Of a stretch of DNA of 64,000 nucleotides, positions 3,507 to 39,553 are shown piece after piece. The notes beneath the pieces are model-generated. The model was not told the origin of the DNA and did not search any database. It saw only the letters and a program-made list of their open reading frames with translations. The DNA lies in assembly GCA_965262615.1 (NCBI GenBank), contig OZ253545.1, forward strand, positions 1,115,113 to 1,179,112, written 5' to 3'. Every line of letters starts with the position of its first letter. Within the stretch, counting starts at the first letter, position 1. The translations under genes were made by a program, and so were the position numbers. Source of the DNA: Alphaproteobacteria bacterium. Its GTDB lineage: Bacteria; Pseudomonadota; Alphaproteobacteria; GM7ARS4; G965262615.

Positions 3507-3510
3507 ACTG

Positions 3511-4620: not shown

Positions 4621-4711
4621 TTTTCAATCAATATTTTGACAACACCAAGAGGCGGTATTAGGTGGCGACATTGACAAATTTTTGCAGGCATCTTTGACTG
4701 CCCAATTGGAG

Positions 4712-5675: not shown

Positions 5676-5770
5676 CCTCCTATTATATCCCCGTCCATAT
5701 TTTTTGCAACACTTTGCGGGGATTCATCACAAGGGGTGGAGCTGGCGAGGGCGCAATTGATGCCTTGGCA

Positions 5771-7116: not shown

Positions 7117-7736
7117 GCATGAAACATTTGACCCTTTGTCTTTTATCTTCGTTTTTTCTATCGTCTGTGGCATTGGCGGAGTCCTCGTCGCCGTTTGATG
7201 CCATGGGGGTGCGTGATGTGATGGCATCGGCGCGGGCTGGCGACAAAGAGGCGCAACATGCCCTCGCCATGCGCTATTATCACGGACGCGGCATCAAGCA
7301 GAATCTGGAAAAGGCCTATGAGTGGCACACCAAAGCCGCCATGCAAGATCACAGCGAGTCGCTGAACGAATTGGGATGGATGCACCTCAACGGTGAGTTC
7401 GTGCCGCAAGACGAAGACATCGCCATCGCCTTTTATGAGCGTTCGGCGGCGTTGGGCAATCCTCATGGGTGTGCGCATCTGGCGGAGATTTTTGCCATGC
7501 GCGGCGACTTCATGAACGCCACCATGCACCTGATGATGGCCAGCGACCCCACCGCAAGCCGCTATGTCATGAGCATGGGACACGCCGACCCAGAACTCCT
7601 CAAAATGCAAATCATGGATGAACTCACCCCCGAGCAGCTCATCACCGCTCGCCACAACGCCATGACATGGCAGCATCAACGGCGCGACACCATGAACAAT
7701 CAATCGCCCCTGCCCTTTGCGGTGAGCTTTCAATAA
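7117..7736 (+). CDS. Divergent Sel1-like repeat lipoprotein/secreted protein
   Basis: Signal peptide MKHLTLCLLSSFFLSSVALA, then degenerate Sel1 repeats (DKEAQHALAMRYYHGRGIKQNLEKAYEWHTKAA...). Start chosen at the first ATG with a signal peptide; the ORF-track start at 6861 overlaps the converging Sel1 gene. Confidence 0.6.
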
Positions 7737-7875
7737 ATTATCGCTCATTCGCCCCGCTCCCCTTCACCGGGGGGCGAGGCGCGCGGCTTGTTTTGATGAT
7801 CGCTCACATGAATTGCCACACAGAGCGTGGCGCGCGAGGCATTGTTTTAATGATCACTTTTTGCTACAGTCCTTC

Positions 7876-9022
7876 TATGGATGGTCAGACACATGTCTCA
7901 CTGCGTCAAAAAATTGACCACATCCGCACGATCCTGTCGCAAGAATATCAAAGAAAACACAAAGTCCCCTGGATTATCGCCTATTCGGGCGGTAAAGACA
8001 GCACATTTCTTTTGCATCTTGTCATGGAGTGCCTGCACAATGTGCCTGAAGAAAAGCGGGTGCGTCCTGTTTATGTTGTGTCCAATGATACCCTTGTGGA
8101 AAGTCCGCTTGTGAGTGAGCATTTACACAAAAGCATGAAGAAAATCAAATCATCGGCAAAAAAGCTTAATCTGCCCATCACCGCCACAATCACAGAGCCA
8201 GCACATTCCGATTCCTTTTGGGTGCAAGTCATTGGCAAAGGATACCCAACGCCCAATCGTATGTTTCGCTGGTGCACCGACCGTCTTAAAATCAAGCCCT
8301 CAACGGAATTCATCAAAAAGCAAGTGAGCCAAAGCGGCAATGTGATTTTACTCATGGGGACACGCAAATCAGAAAGTGCCTCAAGAGCCGCATCCATCAA
8401 TCGCCACAAACGCAAAGGCAACAGCATTTACAGTGACCACAATTCGCTGGAGCATTGCAAGGTCTTGTCCCCCATCGTGGATTTTGAGGATGATGAACTA
8501 TGGACATTTCTTTTGCAATCCAAGCCCCCCTGGGGAGGCAGCTATCGCAATTTGATTACATTGTATCGCAATGCGCGCGGCGGCGAATGCCCCACCGTCT
8601 TGAGCAAAACCGAAGCCCCAGGGTGCGGTTCGGCATCGCCGCGTTTTGGCTGTTGGGTCTGCACCGTGGTGGAAAAGGATAGCAGTCTTGAAGGATTGGT
8701 GGATTCGGGCTTTGAGCAGTTTGAGGCATTGGTGGATTTTCGCTTATGGCTACTGGAAATAAGAAGTGACCCCACATATCGCCTCGCCATTGACCGCAGA
8801 GGCAAAATCCGCACGAGAAAAGACGGCACAATCATGCCAAGAGCCTTTACAATTAAGGCGCGTGAGAAAATTTTGCAAAAACTATTGGAACTGCAAGAAG
8901 AAATGGCGATGAAATTAATTACGCCCCAAGAGATTGAAACAATTCGCGAAATATGGCAAAAAGACAAAGTGATGTTGAACAAGTCACCACACAAAAACAC
9001 ACGCCCCGTGTGTGTCATCTAA
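7876..9022 (+). CDS. PAPS-reductase superfamily protein, DndC/SspD-like (PP-loop ATP pyrophosphatase with C-terminal cysteine cluster)
   Basis: PP-loop motif IAYSGGKDST, followed by a Cys-rich segment GGECPTV...PGCGS...FGCWVC typical of DndC-type DNA sulfur-modification proteins. AT-richer than surrounding genes. Start chosen at MDGQTHV (7876) to avoid overlap with the upstream gene. Confidence 0.6.
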
Positions 9023-9040
9023 TCAGTCGGAGTATTCCAA

Positions 9041-10825
9041 ATGACGACAGAAAATGACGACTTGACAATCAGAGAAATGCCTGTTGGGGAAATTCTCGGA
9101 GGAAAATTTCTCGTTCCAGAATATCAGCGCGGCTATCGTTGGAGTAGAGACGAGGTTATAGAACTTCTTGAAGACATTCAAGATGCCCTCAATGATGGCG
9201 ATGACTACTATTTCATTGGCTCTTTCAATTTGATTAACGATAATCCAAACAAACCTTTTGAGGTTGTTGATGGGCAACAAAGATTGACAACAATTTCATT
9301 AATCGCAAGAGAAGCGCGCTTTTTGTTGCAAAAAGAGACTTCTAATTTGGGAGAAGAAGGGGTGGTTCATCTTATGTCAGCCCTTCTTAAAATTTCAGAC
9401 GAGGTTGTTCACTTTGATCGAAAAAGTGAACGAGAAGGATTTGAAAAACTTATGAAAGGCGACGCTACGAGCCACGACCAAATGTCAGTTGCTTCGAAAG
9501 AAGTAAAAGAATTTATAAAAAGAAAAAAAGAAGAGACCTCTCATGTAGGAAATACCGATGAGCTTGTTAGGTATATGAATTACCTTCTCAACAATGTGAA
9601 GGTAGTTTTTATCGTTGTTAAAGATGAAAAGATTGCATACAAAATTTTTGAAGCTCTTAATCTTCGGGGCAAACCTCTTGGCACGATAGATTCAATAAGA
9701 ATTTTTGTGTTCCGAAATATCAACAGGGAAAAATTTGAGTACTGCTTCAAATTGTGGGAAGACTTGGAGAATACCATGAGAATGACCCACAAAAGAGTTG
9801 ATGACCTTATGACTCAAATGTTTAATACATTCTTTGAGTGTCATAGAGGCATTAGAATTGAGGAAAATCACTTGTTCTCTAAAGTGGAGAATTCCTTTAA
9901 GCAGGAAGCACAAGATGAAAAAGAAAAAGAAAAAGAAAGCCAGAAAATATATCTGGATTTTTTTGAGAAAATCGTATCTATAGATGGTGGTAGCAAGAAA
10001 AATTTTCCTAACTATTACTTGGCTTCTGTTAAGCATGACCATGACCTGTGGAAAAAATTGGATGTGCCGATTTTTTTCAGAGAAGCTTTGTGCGGAACTA
10101 AAATATGGGATGGAAATAAAATATGCAGAGCTCCCATTGCTGCTATGTTTCATGCGTTAAATATGCCAAAACCTCGCATTACAACAGAACAAGCTAACAA
10201 TATTATGCATGACATGTACAGCTTAATTTCTCGCCTTGAAGCGTTGGGAATTCTTCGCGGGCAAAATGTATCAAAATGCAATTCTCGGCTAGCTGCTTTT
10301 GCTAAAAAACTCATCTATACAGAAGAAAATTTTGAGACAATCGCTCAAGAACTTTTTCAAGGCATCCATGACCAAGTTGATGGGGTCATGTCTGATAAAG
10401 ATTTTAGAGTTGAAATGACGGCTAATAAAAAAGTCAGAAGAGACAAAGCAAAAAGATTATTGCGGGATATTGAATTTGCCCGTAACAAGCAACTTGCCAA
10501 TGTGGGTAAAGAAATTCACATTGAACACATTTTGCCTCAAAATCCAAATGAAAAAGATTGGAAAGATTTTTCAGTGGAAGATAGGGATTACCACACAAAT
10601 CGCATTGGTAATTTTGCTTTGTTATTGGATGTTGATAATCAAAGAATCGGCAATAAGCCTTTTGCTGATAAAGTGCTTGTATACGCCGAAAACACGATAA
10701 CAACAACGAATGAATTAGCCAAAAACACAGATTGGACAAAAGATGATATTGATGAACGCAGTAAGCGGCTGGCAAAAGAGATTGCTGGTGTATGGAATTT
10801 CCATTACTACAACCCCTCACCCTGA
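9041..10825 (+). CDS. DUF262 (ParB-like NTPase) plus DUF1524 (HNH/His-Me nuclease) protein, GmrSD/SspE-like modification-dependent restriction enzyme candidate
   Basis: N-terminal DUF262 signature (YQRGYRW...FIGSF...VVDGQQRLTT) and C-terminal DUF1524-like HxxH...N motif (IHIEHILPQNP...NRIGNFALL). Markedly AT-rich, with poly-A/T tracts. Confidence 0.65.
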   Translation: MTTENDDLTIREMPVGEILGGKFLVPEYQRGYRWSRDEVIELLEDIQDALNDGDDYYFIGSFNLINDNPNKPFEVVDGQQRLTTISLIAREARFLLQKETSNLGEEGVVHLMSALLKISDEVVHFDRKSEREGFEKLMKGDATSHDQMSVASKEVKEFIKRKKEETSHVGNTDELVRYMNYLLNNVKVVFIVVKDEKIAYKIFEALNLRGKPLGTIDSIRIFVFRNINREKFEYCFKLWEDLENTMRMTHKRVDDLMTQMFNTFFECHRGIRIEENHLFSKVENSFKQEAQDEKEKEKESQKIYLDFFEKIVSIDGGSKKNFPNYYLASVKHDHDLWKKLDVPIFFREALCGTKIWDGNKICRAPIAAMFHALNMPKPRITTEQANNIMHDMYSLISRLEALGILRGQNVSKCNSRLAAFAKKLIYTEENFETIAQELFQGIHDQVDGVMSDKDFRVEMTANKKVRRDKAKRLLRDIEFARNKQLANVGKEIHIEHILPQNPNEKDWKDFSVEDRDYHTNRIGNFALLLDVDNQRIGNKPFADKVLVYAENTITTTNELAKNTDWTKDDIDERSKRLAKEIAGVWNFHYYNPSP

Positions 10826-11766: not shown

Positions 11767-13053
11767 ATGTCTGACAAAGCACCCAAAGCCATTGACAAAA
11801 CTAGTGAACCTGTGCCTGAGCCCACAAAAGACACTACCAGCAGTGGGTTGGATTATGTGCATCCTGATGCCGTTAACAAATTTATGAACCTGACGTTGGA
11901 CAAAATACCTGAGCAATTGCTCGAGCTTTTAGGTGGAACTGCTTTTTTATTAGCTCTTTTTTATTTTTCTGCCATCATTATTAAAAAATGGTTGGAAGCT
12001 TTAACACTTTATTCCAAAGATGTTACTGCACATTCGGCTATGAAGCGTTCCCTCTATGCCTCCCTCTATGCCTTTATCGTTATATTTGCTACAACAGCTA
12101 TTTATTCAGCGATTGTAACTATCGAAGATTTATTGCCCGAAGAAGGGCAAGATGAATACGAGCGTGGTATAAGGTATTATTACGGGATTGGCGTACCAAA
12201 AGATTACAAGAAAGCAGCTGAATGGTATCAAGAAGCTGCCGACCAAGGACTCGCCCAAGCCCAAAATAATCTTGGTGTGAGGTATGAGCGCGGCGAGGGT
12301 GTACCACAGGATTATGAAAAAGCGGTGGAATGGTATCAAGAGGCTGCCGACCAAGGACTCGCCCAAGCCCAAAACAATCTTGGTGTGATGTATGCCAACG
12401 GTTATGGGGTGACACAGGATTATAAAAAAGCGGTGGAATGGTATCAAAAAGCTGCCAAGCAAGGAAATGCCCAAGCCCAAAACAATCTTGGTGATATGTA
12501 TTACAGTGGTGATGGTGTGCCACAGGATTATAAAAAAGCGGTGAAATTCTATCAAGAAGCTGCCGACCAAGGACTCGCCCAAGCCCAAAGCAATCTTGGT
12601 TGGATGTATTACAACGGTTATGGTGTGACGCAGGATAGAAAAGAAGCTGTGGAATGGTGGCAAAAAGCTGCCGAGCAAGGATTCGCCAAAGCCCAGTTTA
12701 ATCTTGGTGCGGCGTATATCAAAGGTGATGATGTTAAGCAGGATTATGAAAAAGCGTTTGAATGGTATCAAAAAGCTGCCGAGCAAGGTTATGTCCAAGC
12801 CCAAACCAGTTTTGGTTTCATGTATGCCATGGGGCAGGGGGTGACGCAGGATTATAGAAAAGCGAAGGAGTGGTGGGAAAAAGCTGCCGACCAAGGGGAT
12901 GCCCAAGCCCAATTCAATCTTGGTTGGATGTATGAACACGGTGACGGGGTGACGAAAGATATAAAAAAAGCGATTGAATGGTATGAAAAAGCTGCCAAGC
13001 GAGGTCTTGAGGTAGCTATAGATGCTCTCAAAAGATTAAATAAAAACAAGTGA
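11767..13053 (+). CDS. Sel1-like repeat protein with N-terminal TM segments
   Basis: About 8 Sel1 repeats and a C-terminal ...AIDALKRLNKNK tail shared with paralogs. Upstream TTGCAA-N17-TAGGAT. Confidence 0.85.
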   Translation: MSDKAPKAIDKTSEPVPEPTKDTTSSGLDYVHPDAVNKFMNLTLDKIPEQLLELLGGTAFLLALFYFSAIIIKKWLEALTLYSKDVTAHSAMKRSLYASLYAFIVIFATTAIYSAIVTIEDLLPEEGQDEYERGIRYYYGIGVPKDYKKAAEWYQEAADQGLAQAQNNLGVRYERGEGVPQDYEKAVEWYQEAADQGLAQAQNNLGVMYANGYGVTQDYKKAVEWYQKAAKQGNAQAQNNLGDMYYSGDGVPQDYKKAVKFYQEAADQGLAQAQSNLGWMYYNGYGVTQDRKEAVEWWQKAAEQGFAKAQFNLGAAYIKGDDVKQDYEKAFEWYQKAAEQGYVQAQTSFGFMYAMGQGVTQDYRKAKEWWEKAADQGDAQAQFNLGWMYEHGDGVTKDIKKAIEWYEKAAKRGLEVAIDALKRLNKNK

Positions 13054-13077
13054 TACCATCGCCATCTCTTCCGTGTT

Positions 13078-13650
13078 GTGAAGAATGTGGCGATGGGATA
13101 TGGTGAGGGGATGGGTTGGAATAAAGCAAATGTATTGGCGAGGCGTGGTGGTGGCACGGCGTTTTTGTTTGCCATTGTCGTCATTGCTCATACGGGCTGG
13201 ATGGCGAGCGTGGCTCATGCTGATGCAACGGAAGAAGTGCAACAATGGATAGAATTCGCGAAGGGAGGCAGTGCCTTTTACCAAAACGAGGTTGGTTCTG
13301 CGTATGCCGATGGTCGGGGTGTCACGAAGGATTATGAAGAAGCGGTGTTCTGGTATCGCAGAGCCGCCGAACAAGGAAATGCCCTCGCCCAAGCCAATCT
13401 TGGGGTGATGTATAGGGATGGGATGGGTGTCACGCAGGATGATGAGGAAGCGGTGGAATGGTGGAAAAAAGCCGCCGAGCAAGAGAATGCCATAGCTCAA
13501 TTCAATCTTGGGGTGATGTATGGCAAGGGGATAGGCGTGGCACAGAGTGATGAAAAAGCCGTCTATTGGCTCACAAAAGCCGCCGAACAAGGCGATGAAG
13601 ATGCAACAGAAGTTCTCAAAACATTAGAAGAGTTAGAAAACAACAAGTGA
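13078..13650 (+). CDS. Secreted Sel1-like repeat protein (4 repeats)
   Basis: Signal peptide ...IAHTGWMASVAHA. Probable start at 13111 (MGWNK), after TTGTGA-N17-TATGGT-N6. The 3' 250 bp is about 95% identical to 37385..37630. Confidence 0.85.
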   Translation: MKNVAMGYGEGMGWNKANVLARRGGGTAFLFAIVVIAHTGWMASVAHADATEEVQQWIEFAKGGSAFYQNEVGSAYADGRGVTKDYEEAVFWYRRAAEQGNALAQANLGVMYRDGMGVTQDDEEAVEWWKKAAEQENAIAQFNLGVMYGKGIGVAQSDEKAVYWLTKAAEQGDEDATEVLKTLEELENNK

Positions 13651-13674
13651 TACTATCCCCATCTCTTCCGTGTT

Positions 13675-14565
13675 GTGAAGAATGTGGCGATGGGATATGG
13701 TGGGGGCATGAATTGGAATAAAGCAAATGTATTGGCGAGGCGTGGTGGTGGCATGGCTTTTTTGTTTGTCATTGTCGTCACATCTTTTTCCTTGAGTGCG
13801 GTGGCGGAGGATGACTTATCACAATTGGAAATTCTGGCAGAACAGGGGAATCCCTACGCCCAAAACGATCTTGGTGTCATGTATGAGGGCGGTGAGAGGG
13901 TGACGCAGGATTATGAAAAAGCGGTGTTTTGGTATCAACGCGCCGCTGAGCAGGGGTATGATGTCGCCCAATCCAATCTTGGCAATATGTATGACAGAGG
14001 CGATGGGGTGGCGCAGGATTATGAAGAGGCGGCTGAGTGGTATCAAAAAGCTGCTGAACAAGGCTATGCCCAAGCCCAATACAATCTTGGTGTGATGTAT
14101 GCTGAAGGTGAAGGGGTGATGCGAGATTATGAAAAGGTGGTGGAATGGTGGCAAAAAGCTGCCGACCAAGGTTTTGCCGATGCCCAATACAATCTTGGCT
14201 GGCTCTATTACTACGGCGAGGGAGTGACGCAGGATTATCAAAAAGCGGCTGAGTGGTATAGGCAAGCTGCTGGGCAAAATCATCACATTGCTCAGGCTCG
14301 GCTGGGTGTCATGGTTGCCAAGGGTTATGGGGTGAGGCAGGATGATGAAAAAGCGATGGAATGGTATCAAAAAGCGGAGGGACAAATCAAAAAGGATGCT
14401 GAGCGGGGCGATGACTATGCTCAATACACTCTTGGCTGGCTTTATGCTCAAGGTGGCGGAGCCAATCCCAGCATGCAACAGGCGATAAAATGGCTACGCA
14501 AAGCCGCAGAGCAAGGGAGTTCATTTGCTCACGATGAGCTCAAAAGATTAGAAAAAAACAACTAA
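13675..14565 (+). CDS. Secreted Sel1-like repeat protein
   Basis: Sel1 repeats. Probable start at 13708 (MNWNK), after the same promoter arrangement. Confidence 0.85.
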   Translation: MKNVAMGYGGGMNWNKANVLARRGGGMAFLFVIVVTSFSLSAVAEDDLSQLEILAEQGNPYAQNDLGVMYEGGERVTQDYEKAVFWYQRAAEQGYDVAQSNLGNMYDRGDGVAQDYEEAAEWYQKAAEQGYAQAQYNLGVMYAEGEGVMRDYEKVVEWWQKAADQGFADAQYNLGWLYYYGEGVTQDYQKAAEWYRQAAGQNHHIAQARLGVMVAKGYGVRQDDEKAMEWYQKAEGQIKKDAERGDDYAQYTLGWLYAQGGGANPSMQQAIKWLRKAAEQGSSFAHDELKRLEKNN

Positions 14566-14582
14566 TTCGCGCGCCTCTCTCA

Positions 14583-15257
14583 TCATTCGCGTTTTCCGAA
14601 TATTGCCGTGCCGATTCGGATGTGGGTTGCGCCGGCGTTGATGGCGTCTTCAAAGTCGTTGCTCATGCCCATGCTGAGCTGCGAGAGATGGCACCGTTTT
14701 GCCAGCTGTGCCAGCTCATTAAAATAGCGTTTGCCCTGACCGATGGGCGGCAGACACATCAGCCCCACGATTGGCAGGTGTGCGGAGCGCATGGCATCAA
14801 TGAGGCGGGGTGCGTCTTGGGGTGCGATTCCCGCTTTTTGCGTCTCTGCTGCCGCATTGACCTGCACAAACAAGGATGGATTTCTGCCCGTGCCGTCCCG
14901 CTCCCGCACGAATGGCTCAATGAGGCTGTGGCGATCAAACGCGTGAATGACATCACACACCCCCATGATTTTTTTCACCTGCCGCCGTTGCAACGCGCCG
15001 ATATGATGCAGCACCACATGAGGATGCTCTTGTTTCAGCTCATGCCATTTCCCATGAATCTCATCCATGCGATTCTCCCCAAAATCCCCATGCCCCACAT
15101 TGATGGCTTCACGAATAGAATCGCTGGATTGCTGTTTAGACACCGCAATCAAGGTGATTGATTGTCGCCGCTCCCCCGCCACAGCCGCAACCCGCCGTGT
15201 GATGGATTCAATCCGTTCCCTAATGGTTGTGTCATTGCCCATAATGTGTCTTTTCAC
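14583..15257 (-). CDS. yggS: YggS/PLPHP family pyridoxal-phosphate homeostasis protein
   Basis: LIAVSKQQSSDSIREAINVGHGDFGENRMDE matches the YggS N-terminal PLP-binding region. About 220 aa, typical length. Confidence 0.8.
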   Translation of the reverse strand: MKRHIMGNDTTIRERIESITRRVAAVAGERRQSITLIAVSKQQSSDSIREAINVGHGDFGENRMDEIHGKWHELKQEHPHVVLHHIGALQRRQVKKIMGVCDVIHAFDRHSLIEPFVRERDGTGRNPSLFVQVNAAAETQKAGIAPQDAPRLIDAMRSAHLPIVGLMCLPPIGQGKRYFNELAQLAKRCHLSQLSMGMSNDFEDAINAGATHIRIGTAIFGKRE

Positions 15258-15306
15258 GCCCGCAAATCAATTGCAACAAAATGATGAAATGTGGTAGGGT
15301 GGAGGC

Positions 15307-16536
15307 ATGAGCGACCAAGAAACAAAAACAGAGCTTCAACAGAATATCTTTTCCGTCACGCAAACAATTCCTAAAGAGTGGCAAAAGCCTACGGTGATAG
15401 GTATTTTGTTGCTCACTTTTTATTATTTTTCAACCACTATTATTAAGGATTGGCTTCGCCTTGTCATTATTTATGATTACGACTACCTACAGGATGCTTT
15501 AGATGCACTTTTTCATTTTTTTATTGTAGCATCTGTTTTATTTGCACTATGGCTAGTGGTGCAAATTGCCAAGCTATTACTGGAAGAAACTCAAGATGAA
15601 GCAAAAAAAGCTGCTGAGAAAGGAATACCTGAAGGTCAATACAGTCTTGGTTTGAAGTACTACTTTGGCAATGATGTGCCACAAGATTACGAGAAAGCGG
15701 TGGAATGGTGGCAAAAAGCTGCCCAACAAGGGATTGTCGAAGCCCAATACAATCTTGGTGTGATGTATGAGCGCGGTATGGGGGTGACGCAAAATTATGA
15801 AAAAGCGGTGGAATGGTATGAAAAAGCTGCCCAACAAGGGCTTGCCAAAGCCCAATACAATCTTGGTGTGATGTATGAGTTCAGTAAGGGAGTGGTGCAG
15901 AATTATGAAAAAGCGGTGCAATGGTATCAACAAGCTGCCCAACAAGGCGATGCCGATGCCCAATTCAATCTTGGTGGAATGTATGACAGAGGTTATGGGG
16001 TGGTGCAGGATTATGAAAAAGCGGTGGAATGGTATGAAAAAGCTGCCCAACAAGGGCTTGCCAAAGCCCAATACAATCTTGGTGGAATGTATAACAGAGG
16101 TGATGGGGTGACGCAGGATTACGAAAAAGCGGTGCAATGGTTTCAAAAAGCTGCCGAACAAGGTCTTGCAGAAGCTCAATACAATCTTGGTGGAATGTAT
16201 AACAGAGGTAATGGGGTGATGCAGAATTATGAAAAAGCGGTGGAATGGTGGCAAAAAGCTGCCCAACAAGGGATTGTCGAAGCCCAATCCAATCTTGGTA
16301 CGATGTATGATTTGGGTAGAGGAGTAAAGAAGAGTAAAGAAAAAGCTTTGGAATGGTATCAAAAAGCTGCCCAACAAGGTAATGCCCCAGCCCAATTCAA
16401 TCTTGGTTTAATGTATGCCAACGCTGATGGGGTGACGCAGGATTTGGAAAAAGCGAAGGAATGGATTAAAAAAGCTGCCGACCAAGGGCTTGAGGTAGCT
16501 ATAGATGCTCTCAAGGAATTAGAAAAAAAGAAGTGA
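15307..16536 (+). CDS. Sel1-like repeat protein with N-terminal TM segments
   Basis: About 9 Sel1 repeats. Upstream TTGCAA-N18-TAGGGT. C-terminal AIDALKELEKKK. Confidence 0.85.
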   Translation: MSDQETKTELQQNIFSVTQTIPKEWQKPTVIGILLLTFYYFSTTIIKDWLRLVIIYDYDYLQDALDALFHFFIVASVLFALWLVVQIAKLLLEETQDEAKKAAEKGIPEGQYSLGLKYYFGNDVPQDYEKAVEWWQKAAQQGIVEAQYNLGVMYERGMGVTQNYEKAVEWYEKAAQQGLAKAQYNLGVMYEFSKGVVQNYEKAVQWYQQAAQQGDADAQFNLGGMYDRGYGVVQDYEKAVEWYEKAAQQGLAKAQYNLGGMYNRGDGVTQDYEKAVQWFQKAAEQGLAEAQYNLGGMYNRGNGVMQNYEKAVEWWQKAAQQGIVEAQSNLGTMYDLGRGVKKSKEKALEWYQKAAQQGNAPAQFNLGLMYANADGVTQDLEKAKEWIKKAADQGLEVAIDALKELEKKK

Positions 16537-16604
16537 CACAGCCCTTGTCTTTTCACGAACGCCGTTCAGTTGCAACGCCTCATGAGCTGTGGTAGGGTGG
16601 CAAT

Positions 16605-17348
16605 GTGACAGATATTATCTCATCCCTCAAAGATATATTCCAAGAGTGGCACACGCTTATAGTGTTCCTTGCTGTTGCTTATTTTTTACCCAATATTATT
16701 AATAAATGGTCAGCTTTTGGGAAAAAAGATACAGACGCAACTAGAAAAATTGCCGAGAACGGAGAGCCCGACGGTCAAGACAATCTTATTTTTGTGCCAC
16801 AGGATGACGAGCAAACGGTGGAGTGGTGTCAAGAAGCTGCCGACCAAGGGATTGCCGAAGCCCAATACAATCTTGGTGAGATGTATCGCAGAGGTTATGG
16901 AGTAACGCAGAATTATGAAAAAATGGTGGAATGGTGGCAAAAAGCTGCCGACCAAGGATTTGCCGAAGCTCAATACAATCTTGGTGTGGCTTACGAAAAT
17001 GGGGTTGGTGTAAAAAAGGACTATAAAAAGGCGGTGCAATGGTATCAAAAAGCCGCGATGCAAGGTCATGCCAATACCCAAAACAATCTTGGTGGGATGT
17101 ATTCCAACGGTTATGGGGTAACGCAGAATATGGAAAAAGCGGTGGAATGGTGGCAAAAAGCTGCCAAACAAGAAAATGCCTCAGCCCAATACAATCTTGG
17201 CTTGATGTATGCCAACGGTGATGGTGTGACGCAGGATTATGAAAAAGCGAAGGAATGGTTGCAAAAAGCTGCACTGCAGGGGCATGATGATGCAGGGAAA
17301 ACTATTTTTAAATTAGAGGTATTGGAAGAATTAGCAAAAAAGAAGTGA
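16605..17348 (+). CDS. Sel1-like repeat protein
   Basis: About 5 Sel1 repeats with an N-terminal hydrophobic segment. Upstream TTGCAA-N17-TAGGGT. Confidence 0.8.
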   Translation: MTDIISSLKDIFQEWHTLIVFLAVAYFLPNIINKWSAFGKKDTDATRKIAENGEPDGQDNLIFVPQDDEQTVEWCQEAADQGIAEAQYNLGEMYRRGYGVTQNYEKMVEWWQKAADQGFAEAQYNLGVAYENGVGVKKDYKKAVQWYQKAAMQGHANTQNNLGGMYSNGYGVTQNMEKAVEWWQKAAKQENASAQYNLGLMYANGDGVTQDYEKAKEWLQKAALQGHDDAGKTIFKLEVLEELAKKK

Positions 17349-20463: not shown

Positions 20464-22020
20464 TCAATTGTGTTGTGTTAGTTTTTTGAGAATATCTTGA
20501 GCTTTGGCATCGCCTTGTTCGGCAGCTTTTTGCAACCAAAGCACCGCTTTTACAAGATTCTTCTTTACCCCCTCACCTCTGCCATACATCACACCAAGAT
20601 TGTATTGGGCTTCAGTATGACCCTGATCGGCAGCTTGTTGCCACCATTCCACCGCTTTTTGCTTATTCTTCGTCCCCCCCTCACCTTTGCCATACATCAC
20701 ACCAAGAATGTATTGGGCATCGGCATCCCCTTGGTCGGCAGCTTTTTGCAACCATTTTGACGCTTCTTTCTTATTCTCCTTCAATCCCCCCTCACCGTTG
20801 TAATACATCCCACCAAGATTGTGCTGAGCTAGAGCATGACCTTGGTCGGCAGATTTTTGAAGCCATTTTAAGGCTTCTTTCTTATTCTCCTTCAATCCCC
20901 CTTCACCGTTGTAATACATCACGCCAAGATTGGCTTGGGCGTTGGCAAGTCCTTGGTCGGCAGCTTTTTGATACCATTCCACCGCTTTTTCATAATCCTG
21001 CTTCACCCCCTTACCGTTGTAATACTTGATACCAAGATTGTATTGGGCTTCTGCAAGCCCTTGTTGGGCAGCTTTTTCATAACATTTCACCGCCTCCTTT
21101 GTATCAGTGTCAACGCCTCGCCCAGATTCATACATCCCACCAAGATTGATTTGAGCTAGAGCATAGCCCTGTTTGGCAGCTTTTTGATACCATTCCACCG
21201 CTTTTTCATAATCCTGCTTCAGTCCCCCATCACCGTTGGCATACATCACACCAAGATTAGATTGCGCTTCGGCATGACCTTGGTCGGCAGCTTTTTGATA
21301 CCATTCCACCGCTTTTTTCTTATCCTGCGTCACACCCCTACCATGCTCATACATCACACCAAGATTGTATTGGGCTGGGATAAGTCCTTGTTTAGCAGAT
21401 TTTTTCATCCATTTCAAAGATTCTTCCTTATTTTCCTTCACTCCCTCGCCGTTGTAATACATCACGCCAAGATTGAGTTGGGCTGGAGCATCCCCTTGGT
21501 CGGCAGCTTTATGATACCAAAACACCGCTTTTTCATCATCCTGTGCAACGCCATCCCCCAATTTATAAGCCACACCAAGATTGTATTGGGCTAGGGCAAT
21601 ACCTTGCTCCGCAGCTTGTTGCCACCATTCCAACGCTTTTTTCTTATCCTGCGTTACCCCTTTAGGACTGTGATACATCACACCAAGATTGAATTGGGCT
21701 AGGGCATCCCCTTGTTGGGCAGCTTTTTGATACCATTCCGCCATTTGCTCGTCATCCTGTGGCACACCATTGCCAAAGTAATTATAATTATAATTATAAT
21801 TATTGATAATTTGATTATTGATAAAAGTATTGTTTTGACCTTCGGGCTTGCCTTTCTCGGCAGCTTTATCTTTTTTAAACAAAGATTTAACAATGAGGAT
21901 GCACCCCAAAACACCCAAAACAAAAATGAGTGACAGAAAAACTACCACTATATCCTTGTAATCCTCTGGAAAAATCTCTTTGAGGAATGGGGTCATATCT
22001 GCAAGACCTGATAAAGTCAT
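20464..22020 (-). CDS. Sel1-like repeat protein with N-terminal TM and an Asn/Tyr low-complexity linker (NNYNYNYNY)
   Basis: About 11 Sel1 repeats. The linker is encoded by an (AATTAT)x4 hexanucleotide repeat at 21780..21803. Confidence 0.85.
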   Translation of the reverse strand: MTLSGLADMTPFLKEIFPEDYKDIVVVFLSLIFVLGVLGCILIVKSLFKKDKAAEKGKPEGQNNTFINNQIINNYNYNYNYFGNGVPQDDEQMAEWYQKAAQQGDALAQFNLGVMYHSPKGVTQDKKKALEWWQQAAEQGIALAQYNLGVAYKLGDGVAQDDEKAVFWYHKAADQGDAPAQLNLGVMYYNGEGVKENKEESLKWMKKSAKQGLIPAQYNLGVMYEHGRGVTQDKKKAVEWYQKAADQGHAEAQSNLGVMYANGDGGLKQDYEKAVEWYQKAAKQGYALAQINLGGMYESGRGVDTDTKEAVKCYEKAAQQGLAEAQYNLGIKYYNGKGVKQDYEKAVEWYQKAADQGLANAQANLGVMYYNGEGGLKENKKEALKWLQKSADQGHALAQHNLGGMYYNGEGGLKENKKEASKWLQKAADQGDADAQYILGVMYGKGEGGTKNKQKAVEWWQQAADQGHTEAQYNLGVMYGRGEGVKKNLVKAVLWLQKAAEQGDAKAQDILKKLTQHN

Positions 22021-22054: not shown

Positions 22055-23326
22055 CTATGAAATTGAGCGAATCATTTTTTTTCTTTTGTTGAGAAGATAT
22101 TCCATTGGTCTGTCACCCTTGATGCGATTGCAATTGCCACACAATAATTGCAGATTTTCCAACTCATTAGACCCGCCAAGGGATTTGGGGATGATGTGGT
22201 CTATTTCAAGATGCTGTGGTTCAAACGAAGTTCCACAGCCATTGCATTTTCCGCCTTGCTTGCCAAACAAGGTTTCTTTATCGGTATTGGTGATTTTTCT
22301 TTTGTGGTCTATATCCGTGCGTTTGGGGATGTCTTCTCGGTAGATGGGTTCTGTGCCTAACAGGTCTTGAACTTCTTTATGAAGACGCATTTTGACCAGT
22401 TCAAAAGCTTTTTCCGACACATCAATGCCAATCCATTGTCGCCCTAGTTTTTCAGCCGCCACACAAGTTGTCGCGCAGCCGCAAAATGGATCAAGCACCA
22501 CATCCCCTTCATTGCTGGAAGCCTCAATGACGCGGGTGAGAAGCTTCAGTGGCTTTTGCGTGGGATAGCCCACATATTCTGTTTTGCTTCTGGCGGCGAT
22601 GCGTATAATCCACCAGTTTTCCAGCAATTTGCCGCGCTTTCTTTGTTCCAACACATCTTCTTGGGAAACAGAGCCATCGGCAGACATCGCACCGACTAAT
22701 CCCTGCTCTTTTTTTTTGTAAGGAACACGCATGGCGGTGTTGTTAAAAGTCCATTGGTCGGTTTTGGCATACCAGAAAATCGTATCACTTTTTCTGTTGA
22801 ACTGCTTCATGTTGGGTGAGCCGGGGCCATGATAGCACCACACAATCTCATTGATGAGACGATTATTGCCAAAAATGGTATCCATGAGTAGTTTCAAATA
22901 GTGGCTTGCTGTGGGGTCACAATGCAGATAGACACTGCCCGTATCTTTAAGAATACGCTTTATTTCCATCAGCCTCACCGCCATATAGATGAGATAATAC
23001 TTTGCCGAACGGCTGCCGATGCGTCCGACGGCATCAAGATACTCATACAGGTTGGGGTGGCGATCATTGATTTGATTGTGCCACGCATCGTCCATTGTGT
23101 CGGGCGACCATATGTCGGTAAAAGATGCTCCCTCTGCCGTTGTGCCAATGGGTGCGTGAAATTGTCTGCCTTTATTGAAGGGCGGGTCAAGATAAATCAA
23201 GTCTATGGAATTGCTGTTGATTCCTCGCAAAATGGGAAGATTGTCGTGACAAAAAATCGTGCTTGGTTTGAGAGTGGCTTGATGCAACATCCCTTTTACT
23301 ATCCATATTTTTTGCATCAAATGCAA
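22055..23326 (-). CDS. DNA methyltransferase (beta-class N6-adenine/N4-cytosine, DPPF motif) fused to a C-terminal HNH endonuclease domain
   Basis: Motif IV IYLDPPF precedes motif I VLDPFCGCATTC (beta-class order). C-terminal CNGCG...HLEIDHIIPKSLGG...NLQLLCGNCNRIKGDRP is an HNH signature. Confidence 0.8.
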   Translation of the reverse strand: MHLMQKIWIVKGMLHQATLKPSTIFCHDNLPILRGINSNSIDLIYLDPPFNKGRQFHAPIGTTAEGASFTDIWSPDTMDDAWHNQINDRHPNLYEYLDAVGRIGSRSAKYYLIYMAVRLMEIKRILKDTGSVYLHCDPTASHYLKLLMDTIFGNNRLINEIVWCYHGPGSPNMKQFNRKSDTIFWYAKTDQWTFNNTAMRVPYKKKEQGLVGAMSADGSVSQEDVLEQRKRGKLLENWWIIRIAARSKTEYVGYPTQKPLKLLTRVIEASSNEGDVVLDPFCGCATTCVAAEKLGRQWIGIDVSEKAFELVKMRLHKEVQDLLGTEPIYREDIPKRTDIDHKRKITNTDKETLFGKQGGKCNGCGTSFEPQHLEIDHIIPKSLGGSNELENLQLLCGNCNRIKGDRPMEYLLNKRKKMIRSIS

Positions 23327-23337: not shown

Positions 23338-24726
23338 TTAATCAAGCAAATACAATGTGGCGAGGCTTAGGAAGGTGAAAAATCCGATGACATCGGTGAG
23401 GGCGGTGACGCATGGACCCGATGCCACGGCGGGGTCAATGGTGAGGCGATGAAAAAGCCACGGCATGAGTGCGCCCAGCAATCCCGCCAATGCCAGATTG
23501 GCGATCATGGCGACCAGCAGCAATAATCCCAAAGACAGATCCCCGAGCCACAACCAGATGACACCAATGGCAACGCATCCCAACAAAACGCCGCCGATGG
23601 TATTGACGAAAACCTCGCGGGTGATGGTGCGGATGAGATTGTCGCCTCCCAACTCCTTCATGGCAAGGGCGCGCACGGTGACTGTCAGGCTTTGGACGGC
23701 GGCAATGCCGCTCATGGATGCCACCATGGGCATGAACATGGCAAGGGCGACAATTTGTTCAATGGCATGGGTGAATTGGGCAACCACCAATGCGGTGGCA
23801 AAAGTGGCACACAAATTGAACATGAGCCATCCCACCCGAGAGCGCAGAATTCCCCATTGGCTGGGTGTGCCGCCATCGGTGGCAACGCCTCCCAAATGCA
23901 GAAAGTCTTCTTTTGCCTGATCATCAATGACGCCCACCACATCATCAATGGTGATGATGCCCAGCAGGCGTCCTTCAGAATCCACCACCGGATGGGAGGC
24001 GATGTTTTGATCGCGAAAGAAAAAGGCAACCTCTTCTTGCGATGTGGTCACTTCAATGGGACGCAAATGATCTCGCATCAGTGATGTCACACTTTGATTG
24101 CGCTTGCCTCGCACCAGTGTGTCCAGCGTCACCACCCCCAACGGATGTTGACGCACATCCACCACCTGTACATCAAAAAAATTGGCGGGCAGGGAGTCGT
24201 CTTGTTGCAGATGGGAAAGAGTTTGTCCCACCGTCCAATGAGAGGGAATGGCAACGATTTCGCTTTGCATCAAGCGTCCTGCGGTTTTCTCGGGATAGGA
24301 TAAGCCCACCTCAAGAAAACGCCGCTTTTGTTTGGAAAGACGATGACCAATATCAGCGCGCATATCCACAGGCAATGATTCCACAACCGCCGTGACATCA
24401 TCGGTGGGCAGATGCTCCAATGCTTTGGCAATGCGCGCCACGCCCAGTGAGGAAACCACCCCATGCCATGACGAATCATCCAGTTCGGTGAGAATATGAG
24501 GCAAAACATCATCGCTCATGCGAGAGAGCAGCGTGCGGGCTCGTTCCTGCTCCATTTGTTTGACAATGCGCGCCACCACCGCCCCGCCCCACGCCGAGCC
24601 ATGACGATGCAGGGCGGCATCATCATCGTGATTCAAAGCATCCGACATCAATTGATACTGCTGTTCAAATTCCAGCGCGTCAGATTGCCGTCCATCTCCC
24701 TTGACCGAGTGGCGATCATGAGCCAT
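23338..24726 (-). CDS. mgtE: Magnesium transporter MgtE
   Basis: MgtE N-domain, a tandem CBS pair and a five-TM C-terminal domain with typical MgtE motifs. Start set at MAHDRH (24726); the ORF-track start would run across the tRNA gene. Confidence 0.85.
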   Translation of the reverse strand: MAHDRHSVKGDGRQSDALEFEQQYQLMSDALNHDDDAALHRHGSAWGGAVVARIVKQMEQERARTLLSRMSDDVLPHILTELDDSSWHGVVSSLGVARIAKALEHLPTDDVTAVVESLPVDMRADIGHRLSKQKRRFLEVGLSYPEKTAGRLMQSEIVAIPSHWTVGQTLSHLQQDDSLPANFFDVQVVDVRQHPLGVVTLDTLVRGKRNQSVTSLMRDHLRPIEVTTSQEEVAFFFRDQNIASHPVVDSEGRLLGIITIDDVVGVIDDQAKEDFLHLGGVATDGGTPSQWGILRSRVGWLMFNLCATFATALVVAQFTHAIEQIVALAMFMPMVASMSGIAAVQSLTVTVRALAMKELGGDNLIRTITREVFVNTIGGVLLGCVAIGVIWLWLGDLSLGLLLLVAMIANLALAGLLGALMPWLFHRLTIDPAVASGPCVTALTDVIGFFTFLSLATLYLLD

Positions 24727-24779
24727 CTTAATTACTCCTATGACATTTGTGCCCGACAATGCTCTGCCCGACAATGCGA

Positions 24780-24866
24780 TGGTGCGGTCGAGAAGACTCG
24801 AACTTCCACGGGATCGCTCCCACAACGCCCTCAACGTTGCGCGTCTACCAGTTCCGCCACGACCGC
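24780..24866 (-). tRNA. tRNA-Leu (anticodon GAG), type II with long variable arm, CCA encoded
   Basis: Reverse complement reads GCGGTCG...CAACG-TTGAGGG-CGTTG...long variable arm...TCGACCGCACCA. The 7/7 acceptor stem, anticodon stem-loop and TpsiC-like GTTCGAGTC were folded by eye. Confidence 0.8.
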
Positions 24867-24907
24867 ACAACCATCACAATACCCCTAGCACATCTGATGA
24901 TGCCATT

Positions 24908-25051
24908 CAATGGACGGTCAGTGATTGTGTTCCCTATCCTGATGCCGTGCAATTCATGGAAGACACCATTGCCGCCATTCAATGGACGGTCAGTGATTGC
25001 GTTCCCTACCCTGATGCCGTGCAATTCATGGAAAACACCATTGCCGCCATT
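24908..25051 (+). repeat. 72-bp perfect-phase tandem duplication (2 copies, 3 mismatches) covering the lipB start region
   Basis: Seen directly in the sequence: CAATGGACGGTCAGTGATTG(T/C)GTTCCCTA(T/C)CCTGATGCCGTGCAATTCATGGAA(G/A)ACACCATTGCCGCCATT occurs twice. Confidence 0.9.
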
Positions 25052-25585
25052 CATCATGGCAAAGCGGCGGAAACCGTGTGGCTCTTGTCTCATCCTCACT
25101 GTTATGTGAGTGGCAAACGCACCGAATATGCTCACATTCTCAATCAATCGGCAGCTCTGCCTTTGTATTGCTCCGTCAGAGGCGGCTCGGTCAGCTGGCA
25201 TGGAACGGGGCAGCGCATCGCTTACATCATGGTGAATCTGAAAAAACGCGGCTGGCACGACATCAGACAATTTGTCGTGGCACTGGAGAACTGTCTCATT
25301 GACACAATGGGCGAATGGAACATCAAAGCACAACGCAATGACAGACATCATGGCGTGTGGGTGAATGGTTCTATGGTGGCATCTGTTGGTTTGGCGGTGC
25401 GTCATGGCATCAGTTGGCATGGCGTGGCGGTCAATCTCACCAATGATTTGACTCCCTACGATGCCATCCTGCCCTGTGGCATGAAGCCGCAATTGGTGAG
25501 CTCTCTCGCCGCACAAGGATATAGCATCACACATGATGCATGGGATGCCGCCTTTGCTCATCACTGTGCCAGATGGCTTCAATGA
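24956..25585 (+). CDS. lipB: Octanoyltransferase (lipoyl(octanoyl) transferase)
   Basis: N-terminus MEDTIAAIQWTVSDCVPYPDAVQFME... aligns with the E. coli LipB N-terminus. Conserved VWLLSHP, RGGxxTYHGPGQ-like (RGGSVSWHGTGQ) and catalytic-region motifs. Confidence 0.8.
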   Translation: MEDTIAAIQWTVSDCVPYPDAVQFMENTIAAIHHGKAAETVWLLSHPHCYVSGKRTEYAHILNQSAALPLYCSVRGGSVSWHGTGQRIAYIMVNLKKRGWHDIRQFVVALENCLIDTMGEWNIKAQRNDRHHGVWVNGSMVASVGLAVRHGISWHGVAVNLTNDLTPYDAILPCGMKPQLVSSLAAQGYSITHDAWDAAFAHHCARWLQ

Positions 25586-35999: not shown

Positions 36000-37652
36000 A
36001 TGAACAACAAAAAACTCATCGCATGGATTGCCATCACCGTCATTGCCCACACGGGATGGACAATGGGCGTGGCTCATGCCGATGAAACGGTAGATTTGCA
36101 CCAATTGATGGAAGACGCTCAACAAGGCGATGCCGATGCCCAATTCTATCTTGGGTTGATGTATGGCAATGGCGCGGGTGTCACGCAGGATTATGAGGCA
36201 GGCATCTATTGGGTCACAAAAGCCGCGGAACAATGGCATGCCGATGCCCAATACGCTCTTGGGGTGTTTTATAAAAATGGCGATGGTGTGGCACAGAATT
36301 ATGAGAAAGCCGTGTATTGGTATCAAAAAGCCGCGGCGCAAGGAAATGCCGATGCCCAATACGATCTTGGGTTGATGTATGGCAAGGGCGCAGGTGTCAC
36401 GCAGGATTATGAGGCAGGCATCTATTGGTTCACAAAAGCCGCAGAGCAAAACCATGCTGATGCAATAGAAATACTCAAGGAATTAGGCATGGCTCATGAA
36501 ACGGACGAATTGCACCATTTGATGGAACGCGCCCAGCAAGGCGACTCCGTATCCCAATTCTATCTTGGGACGATGTATGAACAGGGCAGAGGTGTCTCTC
36601 GAGATGTTGGACAAGCGGTGCAATGGTATCAAAAAGCCGCCAAGCAAGGATTTGCCCAAGCCCAATACAACCTTGGGTGGATGTATGAAAATGGCACAGG
36701 TGTTCCGCAAGATGATGAACAGGCGGTAGAATGGTATCAAAAAGCCGCGGCACAAGGACTTGCCAATGCTCAAAACAATCTGGCGGAGATGTATCGCGAG
36801 GGCAGAGGTGTTCCGCAGGATGATGAGCAAGCGTTGGAATTGTATCTAAAATCCGCCGAGCAAGGATATGATCGCGCTCAAACCACTATGGGCTGGATGT
36901 ATGACAATGGCATTGGTGTTGTGCAAGATTATGAGCAAGCCGCGCAATGGTTCACAAAAGCCGCGGTGCAAGGATTTGCCCGAGCTCAAAGTAATCTTGC
37001 TATGATGTATCTTCATGGCAGAGGTGTTCCGCAGGATTATGAGCAAGCCGCGCAATGGTGGAGAAAAGCCGCAAGGCAAGGCTATGCCAAGGCTCAATTC
37101 AATCTTGGGCTGATGTATCACAATGGAGATGGGGTTGCACAGGACGATGAGCAAGCTTTGTATTGGTGGGAGAAAGCCGCAAGACAAGGAAATAAAGATG
37201 CAATAGAAGCTCTCAAAATATTAGGCATGGCTGATGAAACGGACGAATTGCACCAATTGAGAGAACGCGCCGAGCAAGGCGATGCCGATGCCCAAAACTA
37301 TCTTGGTGTGATGTATAACACTGGCATGGGTGTGACGCAGGATAAAAAAGAAGCCGTGGAATGGTTCAAAAAATCCGCCGAACAAGGAAATGCCCTCGCC
37401 CAAGCCAATCTTGGAGTGATGTATAGGGATGGGATGGGTGTCACGCAGGATGATGAGGAAGCTGTGGAATGGTGGAAAAAAGCCGCAGAGCAAGAAAATG
37501 CCGTAGCCCAATACAATCTTGCTGTGATGTATGGCAAGGGAATCGGCGTGGCACAGAGTGATGAAAAAGCCGTCTATTGGTTCACAAAAGCCGCCAAACA
37601 AGGCGATGTTGATGCAATAGAAGTTCTCAAGAAATTAGGCATCACCGACTGA
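36000..37652 (+). CDS. Secreted Sel1-like repeat protein (550 aa; three tandem modules each ending DAIE-LK-LGM)
   Basis: Signal peptide ...IAHTGWTMGVAHA and about 13 Sel1 repeats. The last module is about 95% DNA-identical to 13380..13625. Confidence 0.85.
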   Translation: MNNKKLIAWIAITVIAHTGWTMGVAHADETVDLHQLMEDAQQGDADAQFYLGLMYGNGAGVTQDYEAGIYWVTKAAEQWHADAQYALGVFYKNGDGVAQNYEKAVYWYQKAAAQGNADAQYDLGLMYGKGAGVTQDYEAGIYWFTKAAEQNHADAIEILKELGMAHETDELHHLMERAQQGDSVSQFYLGTMYEQGRGVSRDVGQAVQWYQKAAKQGFAQAQYNLGWMYENGTGVPQDDEQAVEWYQKAAAQGLANAQNNLAEMYREGRGVPQDDEQALELYLKSAEQGYDRAQTTMGWMYDNGIGVVQDYEQAAQWFTKAAVQGFARAQSNLAMMYLHGRGVPQDYEQAAQWWRKAARQGYAKAQFNLGLMYHNGDGVAQDDEQALYWWEKAARQGNKDAIEALKILGMADETDELHQLRERAEQGDADAQNYLGVMYNTGMGVTQDKKEAVEWFKKSAEQGNALAQANLGVMYRDGMGVTQDDEEAVEWWKKAAEQENAVAQYNLAVMYGKGIGVAQSDEKAVYWFTKAAKQGDVDAIEVLKKLGITD

Positions 37653-37682
37653 TTCCCCCTCGCCTTGAGGCAAGGACAGGCA

Positions 37683-38114: not shown

Positions 38115-38183
38115 GGTGGTTAGAATATGTGCATTTGCAGGGTTTGTCAATGCCAAGATGCCTTACGGTCATTGCAGATGACC
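38115..38183 (-). promoter_or_regulatory. Conserved promoter TTGACA-N17-TATTCT-N7-ATG plus upstream palindrome GGTCATTGCAGATGACC (38167..38183)
   Basis: Promoter and palindrome are conserved upstream of 4 of the 5 DUF1640-like paralogs (41657..41735, 45649..45715, 46249..46300). Confidence 0.5.
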
Positions 38184-38294
38184 ATGAGCAAGAGAAAACA
38201 TCACTCAAAACATTGGGCATACCCAACTAATTCGCCCTCGCTCTTGCTTTTTGCCATTGGTTTTTGTATGGGTGGCGTGCCCAATGGCAATCAA

Positions 38295-39476: not shown

Positions 39477-39553
39477 CCGTGAAAAAGCTGTTTTATCAGC
39501 CTCATCAGTGTGATACAATCGCGGCGGTCAATTGATGGCGCGAGGAGTTTGGT

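Follow-up and report, generated by a model that had tools for sequence, protein, structure and literature searches.

Within the stretch analysed here (the window, 64,000 nucleotides of Alphaproteobacteria bacterium, assembly GCA_965262615.1, contig OZ253545.1, positions 1,115,113 to 1,179,112 of the forward strand), a single gene next to mgtE encodes a DNA methyltransferase (MTase) fused to an HNH nuclease domain at its C-terminus, hereafter MTase-HNH. The locus raises the question of what such a protein does on its own: whether it is a complete restriction-modification (R-M) enzyme in one chain, a selfish or a regulatory methylase, or what is left of a larger element. The reading preferred here is that MTase-HNH is an autonomous single-chain R-M enzyme in which one cassette directs both methylation and cleavage, an activity predicted from the sequence and given a probability of roughly 55%. 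The window gene itself is no relic: it is intact and accessory, with a defensive or selfish role, and it is one ordinary member of a large, apparently uncharacterised family.

Residues are numbered throughout from the maximal open reading frame (ORF) of 423 amino acids (aa), which begins with a TTG codon. Translation is likely to start at ATG 23290 (M13), since homologues (P0001, L081) begin there and the first 12 residues correspond to 78% gaps in the family alignment. The start at TTG 23326 is probably unused, and ATG 23317 is a possible alternative. The gene and its parts are the following.

22055..23290, minus strand: MTase-HNH gene, 411 aa from ATG 23290 (maximal ORF 22055..23326, from TTG 23326, 423 aa).
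22391..23206, minus strand: beta-class N6-adenine DNA methyltransferase domain, aa 41-312 (PF01555, N6_N4_Mtase, E 1.1e-50).
23177..23188, minus strand: motif IV DPPF, catalytic and adenine-binding, aa 47-50, read directly; 321 of the 345 sequences compared in the family have DPPF.
22577..22831, minus strand: variable central cassette, the putative target-recognition domain, aa 166-250, containing the low-confidence loop aa 201-220.
22469..22492, minus strand: motif I DPFCGCAT, an S-adenosylmethionine (AdoMet)-binding variant of FxGxG, aa 279-286, read directly; D279, P280, F281 and G283 are invariant.
22247..22390, minus strand: linker, aa 313-360, in which P334-x-R336-x-D338 and Q357 hardly vary.
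22109..22246, minus strand: HNH (beta-beta-alpha-metal) nuclease domain, aa 361-406 (PF01844, E 1.4e-14; HNH_5, 1.5e-13).

Both domain matches (1.1e-50 and 1.4e-14) are far above chance, PF01555 being matched along its whole Pfam profile (1-220 of 221), and the fusion gene was confirmed as real and intact. In beta-class MTases, motif IV (D/S-P-P-Y/F) is followed by the recognition domain, motif X and motif I (FxGxG); the protein belongs to this class because DPPF (aa 47-50) precedes DPFCGCAT (aa 279-286). The aspartate, and not serine, of DPPF in motif IV presumably favours adenine N6 over cytosine N4 chemistry, according to a rule of thumb. The HNH motif reads C361-x2-C364 ... D376-H377 ... 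N391 ... C396-x2-C399-N400, with the catalytic residues and the Cys4 zinc site complete. No NCBIfam model reached its family cut-off; the nearest one to the N-terminal part was PRK11524, a YhdJ-type adenine methyltransferase, and the nearest ones to the C-terminal part were the HNH domains of IscB, Cas9d and Cas9. A preliminary description of this DNA had proposed a beta-class amino-MTase with a C-terminal HNH domain, which is borne out by the Pfam domains, the order of the motifs and the Foldseek comparison. The HNH motif that it had pointed out is present, although the spacing given as HxxxH is in reality H372-x4-H377, a trivial slip. Substitutions of the catalytic His and Asn of the HNH domain, which it had named as a refuting outcome, were not found, these residues being intact.

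A structural model was computed with AlphaFold2 from 118 homologues and reached a mean predicted local distance difference test score (pLDDT) of 90.7 and a predicted template modelling score (pTM) of 0.89, the loop aa 201-220 being the sole weak stretch. The MTase and HNH domains are predicted to adopt a single confident arrangement relative to each other. Foldseek searches against the PDB returned the beta-class N6-adenine (N6A) methyltransferases RsrI, CcrM, M.BceJIV and MboIIA as top matches (probability 1.00, target-normalised TM 0.57-0.85); 4zcf and 7dsu were also among the fold matches.

The conservation of both catalytic centres was then considered across the family. Conservation of the motifs DPPF, DPFxG and C-C-DH-N-C-C-N reaches 99-100% in sets of 118-190 sequences with 40-80% identity. 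The catalytic D-H-N-N of the HNH domain is intact in 306 of the 345 family sequences, and 289 of them retain both sets of motifs. Between the window allele and the full-length allele of a close relative (L085), the ratio of nonsynonymous to synonymous substitution rates (dN/dS) was 0.06 overall and 0.049 in the HNH domain. Both active sites are under selection. A T5orf172/MUG113 domain, T5orf172 being a member of the GIY-YIG clan of Pfam, occupies the position of the HNH domain in at least eight sister proteins (P0214, P0215, P0226, P0230, P0236, P0239, P0254 and P0265), the MTase parts of which are 45-54% identical to the query. According to Iyer et al., T5orf172 is one of the nuclease domains found in N6A R-M systems (PMC4738411). 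Because HNH was swapped for an unrelated nuclease fold, the function under selection at the C-terminus would seem to be DNA cleavage rather than zinc-finger binding.

These data bear on the possibility that the protein is an orphan adenine methyltransferase with a regulatory or housekeeping role, in which the HNH domain would be a DNA-binding or structural zinc module, comparable to the DNA-binding C-terminal domain of CcrM, or a repair-type nickase. Among solved structures, the nearest relatives are M.BceJIV and CcrM, both of them orphan regulators; CcrM has an extra C-terminal domain and yielded a longer Foldseek alignment (378-380 columns). The gene also forms an apparent operon with mgtE, and HNH-less alleles are viable. 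However, beyond the zinc cysteines it is the catalytic D-H-N-N that is 99% conserved, the domain replacing HNH in the sister proteins is a nuclease and not a DNA-binding domain, arrays of several copies with different cassettes are unlike a single regulatory methylase, and the gene is not found at the corresponding locus of Alphaproteobacteria bacterium GM202ARS2. An orphan role of this kind was therefore judged quite unlikely.

The part of the protein lying between motif IV and motif I of the MTase shows a different pattern. Residues 166-250 (about 85 aa) display the highest entropy in the family alignment. Paralogues and tandem copies within one genome are mostly 73-100% identical in the N-lobe, the C-lobe and the HNH domain and 20-39% identical in aa 166-250; at the DNA level both gene ends align and the middle does not. 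In the triplet of locus L018, identity amounts to 88-100% outside the cassette and 24-32% inside. The cassette of the window gene is 99% identical to that of P0002 and 87% to that of P0003, the other segments being 40-92% identical, and the nucleotide identity with the L081 gene is mosaic (80-91% over aa ~133-295, 62-79% elsewhere). In beta-class methyltransferases the central segment is the target-recognition domain, and both the mod alleles of Type III systems and the specificity subunits of Type I systems likewise have conserved modules around an exchangeable reader. Residues 166-250, which are swapped between copies, probably constitute the target-recognition domain, and the swapping would diversify specificity. 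The transfer of a target motif from solved relatives was attempted and dropped, the cassette aligning too weakly to M.BceJIV.

In the mechanism proposed for a single-chain R-M enzyme, the central cassette (aa 166-250) would recognise a short stretch of DNA. On the cell's own DNA, adenine N6 in that sequence would be methylated by the DPPF centre using AdoMet, and on unmethylated incoming DNA the same recognition would position the C-terminal HNH domain to nick or cut nearby. The latter would be a zinc-stabilised domain of the Cas9/IscB type without known sequence preference of its own. Cutting would probably take place in a dimer, because other beta-class methyltransferases are dimeric. Loss of the nuclease would leave an orphan methylase, and the gene would spread as a selfish, addictive mobile unit. 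As one cassette would serve both activities, its exchange would alter specificity without uncoupling protection from attack, which would explain the arrays of copies differing only in the cassette. We infer cleavage, its dependence on the methylation state, the target sequence, dimerisation and an anti-phage benefit as parts of this model.

The surroundings of the gene in the window were also inspected. The immediate context is composed of the following features.

23338..24726, minus strand: mgtE, a core gene located 47 nt upstream of MTase-HNH (Pfam MgtE_N, CBS and MgtE; homologues of 462 aa).
24780..24866, minus strand: tRNA-Leu(gag), detected by ARAGORN, ~1.45 kb from the MTase-HNH gene.
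20464..22020, minus strand: gene of a Sel1-repeat protein, 34 nt downstream (Pfam Sel1, 12 repeats), in a variable region that differs in L084.

The three protein-coding genes mgtE, MTase-HNH and Sel1 all share the minus strand, with leuS converging on them from the opposite side. The mechanically called mgtE ORF of 510 aa (23338-24870, minus strand) overruns tRNA-Leu; the real start at M49 (24726) gives 462 aa as in relatives. With 0.456, the G+C content of the MTase-HNH gene is below that of the window (0.504) and of the core genes on either side (about 0.52-0.58). Near MTase-HNH the window has no gene for restriction, specificity, a helicase, an integrase or a transposase, and the searches for direct or inverted repeats, and for promoter or terminator signals, flanking the gene gave chance-level matches only. 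The gene is thus solitary, as the preliminary description had it, with mgtE and the Sel1-repeat gene as neighbours, no adjacent restriction or specificity gene and no integrase in the window. Sel1-repeat genes have expanded in this DNA (872-7078, 11767-17348, 20464-22020 and probably 36000-41077 of the window), with a mutual DNA similarity of 65-80% and in patches of lower G+C content; such an expansion is typical of host-associated bacteria. At 24902-25053 of the window, the 5' end of lipB contains 72 bp duplicated in tandem (2.1 copies with 96% match), which encode repeats of ~24 aa (IQWTVSDCVPYPDAVQFME[D/N]TIAA).

The same locus was examined in relatives. In L085 (91% DNA identity), the order fpg-rpsT-aminotransferase-lipB-tRNA-Leu-mgtE is followed by the full fusion gene. 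Two further, independent assemblies of near-identical strains, ~96% identical to the window, namely L084 (501-1499; a long-read assembly from ENA) and L089 (1520-2518; a Logan short-read assembly), carry an HNH-less allele of 332 aa. Both share one junction (...EDIPKRTD|KNFMTQ*) located right after P334-x-R336-x-D338, the breakpoint corresponding to 22313/22314 in the window, and the entire HNH domain is replaced by a different sequence running into a Sel1 gene. In the HNH-less allele, purifying selection continues to act on the MTase part (dN/dS 0.14-0.15). Eight of the 14 amino-acid differences between the L084 allele and the window gene are located in aa 205-220, a loop of the putative recognition domain. 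In the distant GM202ARS2, the next relative available (mgtE 46% identical), the order lipB-tRNA-Leu-mgtE is kept, and the mgtE locus has no MTase-HNH gene downstream of mgtE, where unrelated small ORFs and ankyrin genes are located instead. The gene is accessory and entered a variable site downstream of mgtE, because close relatives have it there and GM202ARS2 does not; this is the outcome of the comparison of related mgtE loci, which had been suggested beforehand as a check for core status. A core orphan methyltransferase would be expected at the same locus across the lineage and in single copy, and neither holds: the gene is absent from the locus in GM202ARS2 and present in several copies in many genomes.

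The preliminary description had further proposed that the gene was inserted at a tRNA-Leu hotspot about 1.5 kb away and was possibly a remnant, which might cooperate with a DUF262-DUF1524 nuclease 12 kb away. A decayed phage or island remnant at tRNA-Leu would agree with the G+C content of the gene, which is below that of the flanking core genes, with the distance to tRNA-Leu, measured as ~1.45 kb, and with the existence of a GmrSD-like gene at 9041-10825. The tRNA-Leu is nevertheless not the insertion point, because its adjacency to mgtE is ancestral and the gene is separated from the tRNA by the core gene mgtE. Neither direct repeats nor an integrase or phage genes were found, the gene is intact and under purifying selection, and family members at 76 other loci are as a rule likewise single and solitary, so nothing is missing at the window locus. 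The supposed occurrence of such fusions in phages was not substantiated either: no full-length fusion was detected by tblastn in 50,697 phage genomes, and only about 6 of the best 80 matches in IMG/VR were full-length fusions. The GmrSD-like gene has a DndC-like neighbour of its own, and no GmrSD-like gene recurs beside family members, which speaks against a functional link. The island-remnant explanation is largely refuted and was considered very improbable.

The region around the GmrSD-like gene is a low-G+C patch (0.37-0.40) on the plus strand (7667-10825 of the window), in which a DndC-like 3'-phosphoadenosine-5'-phosphosulfate-reductase protein (PADLOC DndC, 2e-118) is directly followed by the GmrSD-type DUF262/DUF1524 nuclease, the gene at 9041-10825 (PADLOC HEC-06/Orf5/SspE-like). 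No other dnd or ssp genes were seen beside the pair, which may be a minimal modification-plus-nuclease defence pair of its own.

The family to which the window gene belongs is large. A word-indexed search gave at least 8000 scored candidates, all with E<=0.001, and nearly all of the best 120 matches have the same two-domain architecture and a length of 390-510 aa. Among 50%-identity representatives, an exhaustive search gave 3219 clusters at E<=1e-30 (MTase-only relatives counted in), and most of the best 150 representative matches are full-length fusions. The relatives in species-representative genomes, scanned with peptide patterns taken from the query and thus sampling the near clade only, are almost all from metagenome-assembled genomes with titles pointing to symbionts (Poriferihabitaceae, Spongiisociaceae, Spongiihabitans, many Dehalococcoidia/Chloroflexota, Deianiraea, Adiutrix and Symbiobacter). 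Cluster look-up gave no names for the family members, which are currently labelled merely 'DNA methyltransferase' or 'HNH endonuclease'. A full-text literature search, including comprehensive R-M reviews, returned no published description of an MTase-HNH fusion enzyme, a 'putative' listing in REBASE being possible. Two members deviate in architecture: P0212 (650 aa) has C-terminal ankyrin repeats added to MTase-HNH and degenerate motifs in both domains (DPPL; V-H-N-R), and P0121 (1598 aa) contains three PF01555 domains and a further methyltransferase region of the N6_Mtase/UPF0020 type.

The symbiotic lifestyle suggested by these titles could also point to a host-directed effector, i.e. a protein exported by the symbiont in order to methylate or damage eukaryotic host DNA. 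Judged by record titles, most of the family comes from sponge, termite and protist symbionts, the window is rich in Sel1-repeat genes and P0212 is fused to ankyrin repeats. The MTase-HNH protein, however, has no signal peptide and no secretion-associated neighbour, the degenerate motifs of P0212 make it look like an exaptation, and the diversification of the cassette and the tandem arrays fit defence better. An effector function is extremely improbable.

All-against-all clustering of four genes per side at 76 loci yielded no recurrent neighbour. In a scan of the 144 immediate neighbours with Pfam and PADLOC, no family occurred more than two times, and the neighbours were ordinary metabolic genes. 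The gene is autonomous from its neighbours, the solitary one-gene layout being the family rule. Multiple copies per genome are common, e.g. three each in OZ253546.1, OZ245364.1 and OZ253463.1. Head-to-tail arrays of 2-3 copies were found at L012, L018, L020, L044, L047 and L058, and in L086 two copies are 3.3 kb apart. The triple arrays are located as follows.

L018, 27-3738: triple head-to-tail MTase-HNH array.
L012, 7261-11206: triple head-to-tail MTase-HNH array.

Mobility is seen in OY759598.1, where two identical copies of 2973 bp (L075 9849-12844; L076) consist of the fusion gene, a 113-aa ORF and an IS1595-family transposase. 

The units in L075 and L076 are bounded by terminal inverted repeats of 36 nt and carry MTase-HNH as cargo; in L075 the unit has on one side a clustered regularly interspaced short palindromic repeats (CRISPR) array, with ORFs derived from its repeats at 8886-9733, and on the other a cas1-like gene (12796-13683). 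An IS1595-type transposase was also found within ~1 kb of the gene at L023 (partial), L038, L041, L054, L063 and on the viral contig L092 (Pfam-confirmed), the association with IS1595 concerning ~8 loci overall. This cargo arrangement was found in relatives, while the window contains neither a DDE_Tnp_IS1595 transposase nor a match to the inverted repeat of L075. Among 72,556 plasmid records searched by tblastn, only three cover at least 80% of the query; the plasmid matches listed are ~25% identical E. coli records of chromosome length, which end at aa 373, before the HNH motif. A phage or plasmid origin was rejected, no full-length fusion being found in the 50,697 phage genomes and the plasmid matches listed stopping short of the HNH motif. 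The family is overwhelmingly chromosomal. Because of its low G+C content, its absence in GM202ARS2 and the IS1595 cargo copies, the gene is regarded as mobile and accessory, and in the family the nuclease has been lost recurrently while the methylase was kept.

Such mobility could be the very purpose of the protein. The HNH or T5orf172 domain would then be a free-standing homing endonuclease, or a nickase aiding the spread of the gene or of its insertion sequence, and the MTase would only shield the carrier genome from its own nuclease. The two families classically known as free-standing homing nucleases are those with HNH and with GIY-YIG-like domains, which counts in favour of this explanation, as do the insertion of single genes at unrelated places amid housekeeping genes, in most cases with no transposase nearby, the presence/absence polymorphism seen with GM202ARS2 and the IS1595 association. 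Homing, however, needs a stable target, and the recognition cassette is the most variable part of the protein. No common insertion context and no flanking repeat were found, and tandem arrays of diverged copies are unexpected from homing. A selfish mobility element is unlikely on these grounds, and it overlaps largely with the known selfish behaviour of R-M systems, so that it is not fully exclusive of a single-chain R-M enzyme.

Several observations weigh against the interpretation as a single-chain R-M enzyme. To our knowledge, known combined R-M enzymes pair a PD-(D/E)XK nuclease with a gamma-class methyltransferase. A lone HNH centre usually nicks one strand, a double-strand cut needing a dimer or two sites, and after a cassette swap the cell would have to avoid self-cutting. 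PADLOC matched the protein with generic Type II/III methyltransferase models only, and in the Foldseek search against the PDB no solved chain spans MTase and HNH, the best match covering the MTase only with a query-normalised TM (TMq) <=0.50. The 144 immediate neighbours of family members are housekeeping genes and not defence islands. The MTase motifs are intact with the HNH domain absent (some proteins having T5orf172 instead) or mutated in 35 of the 345 sequences, and the reverse applies to 5 of 345, an asymmetry which is biased since an MTase-led search cannot fetch HNH-only proteins; point mutations alone amount to 9 cases with HNH lost against 5 with MTase lost.

If the interpretation as an R-M enzyme is true, a function would be assigned to a family with thousands of members, and a very small R-M scaffold would be available with its specificity in one swappable cassette, for which the arrays of L012 and L018 represent natural test sets. 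The natural nuclease-deleted allele in the population offers a ready control for a methylome comparison. More tentatively, and with odds that we would place somewhat below even, MTase-HNH and MTase-T5orf172 proteins may together form a large and hitherto unrecognised class of single-chain R-M enzymes of miniature size (~410 aa), in which an internal cassette of ~85 aa in a beta-class MTase alone programs both activities, and which occur as tandem 'libraries' in symbionts and spread with IS1595. This would amount to a new Type II subtype and to a naturally modular, cassette-programmable nuclease-methylase scaffold. PF01555 and PF01844 were reported to be enriched in sponge-symbiont metagenomes (PMC12284385), an enrichment which the proposed reading of MTase-HNH would help explain.

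Compared with known systems, the MTase part resembles M.BceJIV, YhdJ, CcrM, M.RsrI and M.MboIIA, which gave the best sequence and fold matches to aa 20-320 and share DPPF/Y followed by FxGxG and N6-adenine chemistry. These enzymes differ in having no nuclease domain, the identity is ~22-24%, and, unlike them, MTase-HNH proteins carry an additional helical insertion behind motif IV (aa 58-124), which is conserved in the family. A likeness to Type III Mod proteins (EcoP15I, Mbo45V and phase-variable mod alleles) is seen in the beta-class PF01555 domain, the central variable recognition domain between conserved lobes, alleles differing mainly in the centre, PADLOC MTase_III models (1e-44) and the fold matches 4zcf and 7dsu. 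MTase-HNH is, however, far smaller than Mod and carries a fused nuclease of another fold; no Res protein (superfamily 2 helicase plus nuclease) is encoded beside the gene, and no helicase family recurs near the homologues.

In MboII-type systems the same two enzyme folds cooperate, M.MboIIA being a top structural match and R.MboII being listed among HNH enzymes (PMC4081073). These are encoded by two genes, each product having its own DNA recognition, whereas MTase-HNH is one chain with one cassette, and no separate restriction endonuclease gene lies adjacent as in two-gene Type II systems. Type IV fusions of a sensor with HNH, such as TagI (SRA-HNH), VcaM4I (EVE-HNH) and winged-helix-HNH/GIY-YIG proteins (PMC12707154), likewise combine a modular DNA-reading domain with an interchangeable nuclease of the HNH or GIY-YIG type. 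Their sensors bind modified bases and have no MTase activity, whereas the reader of MTase-HNH is an MTase with intact catalytic motifs.

The closest match in the way MTase-HNH would work is offered by the Type IIC/IIG enzymes (the MmeI family, Eco57I, BpuSI and the Thermus TspGWI/Tth111II family), in which nuclease and MTase are likewise united in one polypeptide without a partner gene, and one recognition module would direct both, so that specificity can be altered through exchange or mutation of this module. Type IIC/IIG enzymes are 900-1300 aa long and consist of a PD-(D/E)XK nuclease at the N-terminus, a gamma-class MTase and a recognition domain at the C-terminus (see also the reviews PMC12707154 and PMC4081073). 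MTase-HNH, in contrast, has ~410 aa, a beta-class MTase with the cassette inside it and an HNH or T5orf172 domain at the C-terminus, and shares no sequence relation with them beyond the Rossmann core. Because of its beta-class MTase and HNH domain, and because no PDB or NCBIfam match indicated homology of the MmeI or BpuSI type, MTase-HNH would work like the Type IIC/IIG enzymes and yet stand outside their known families.

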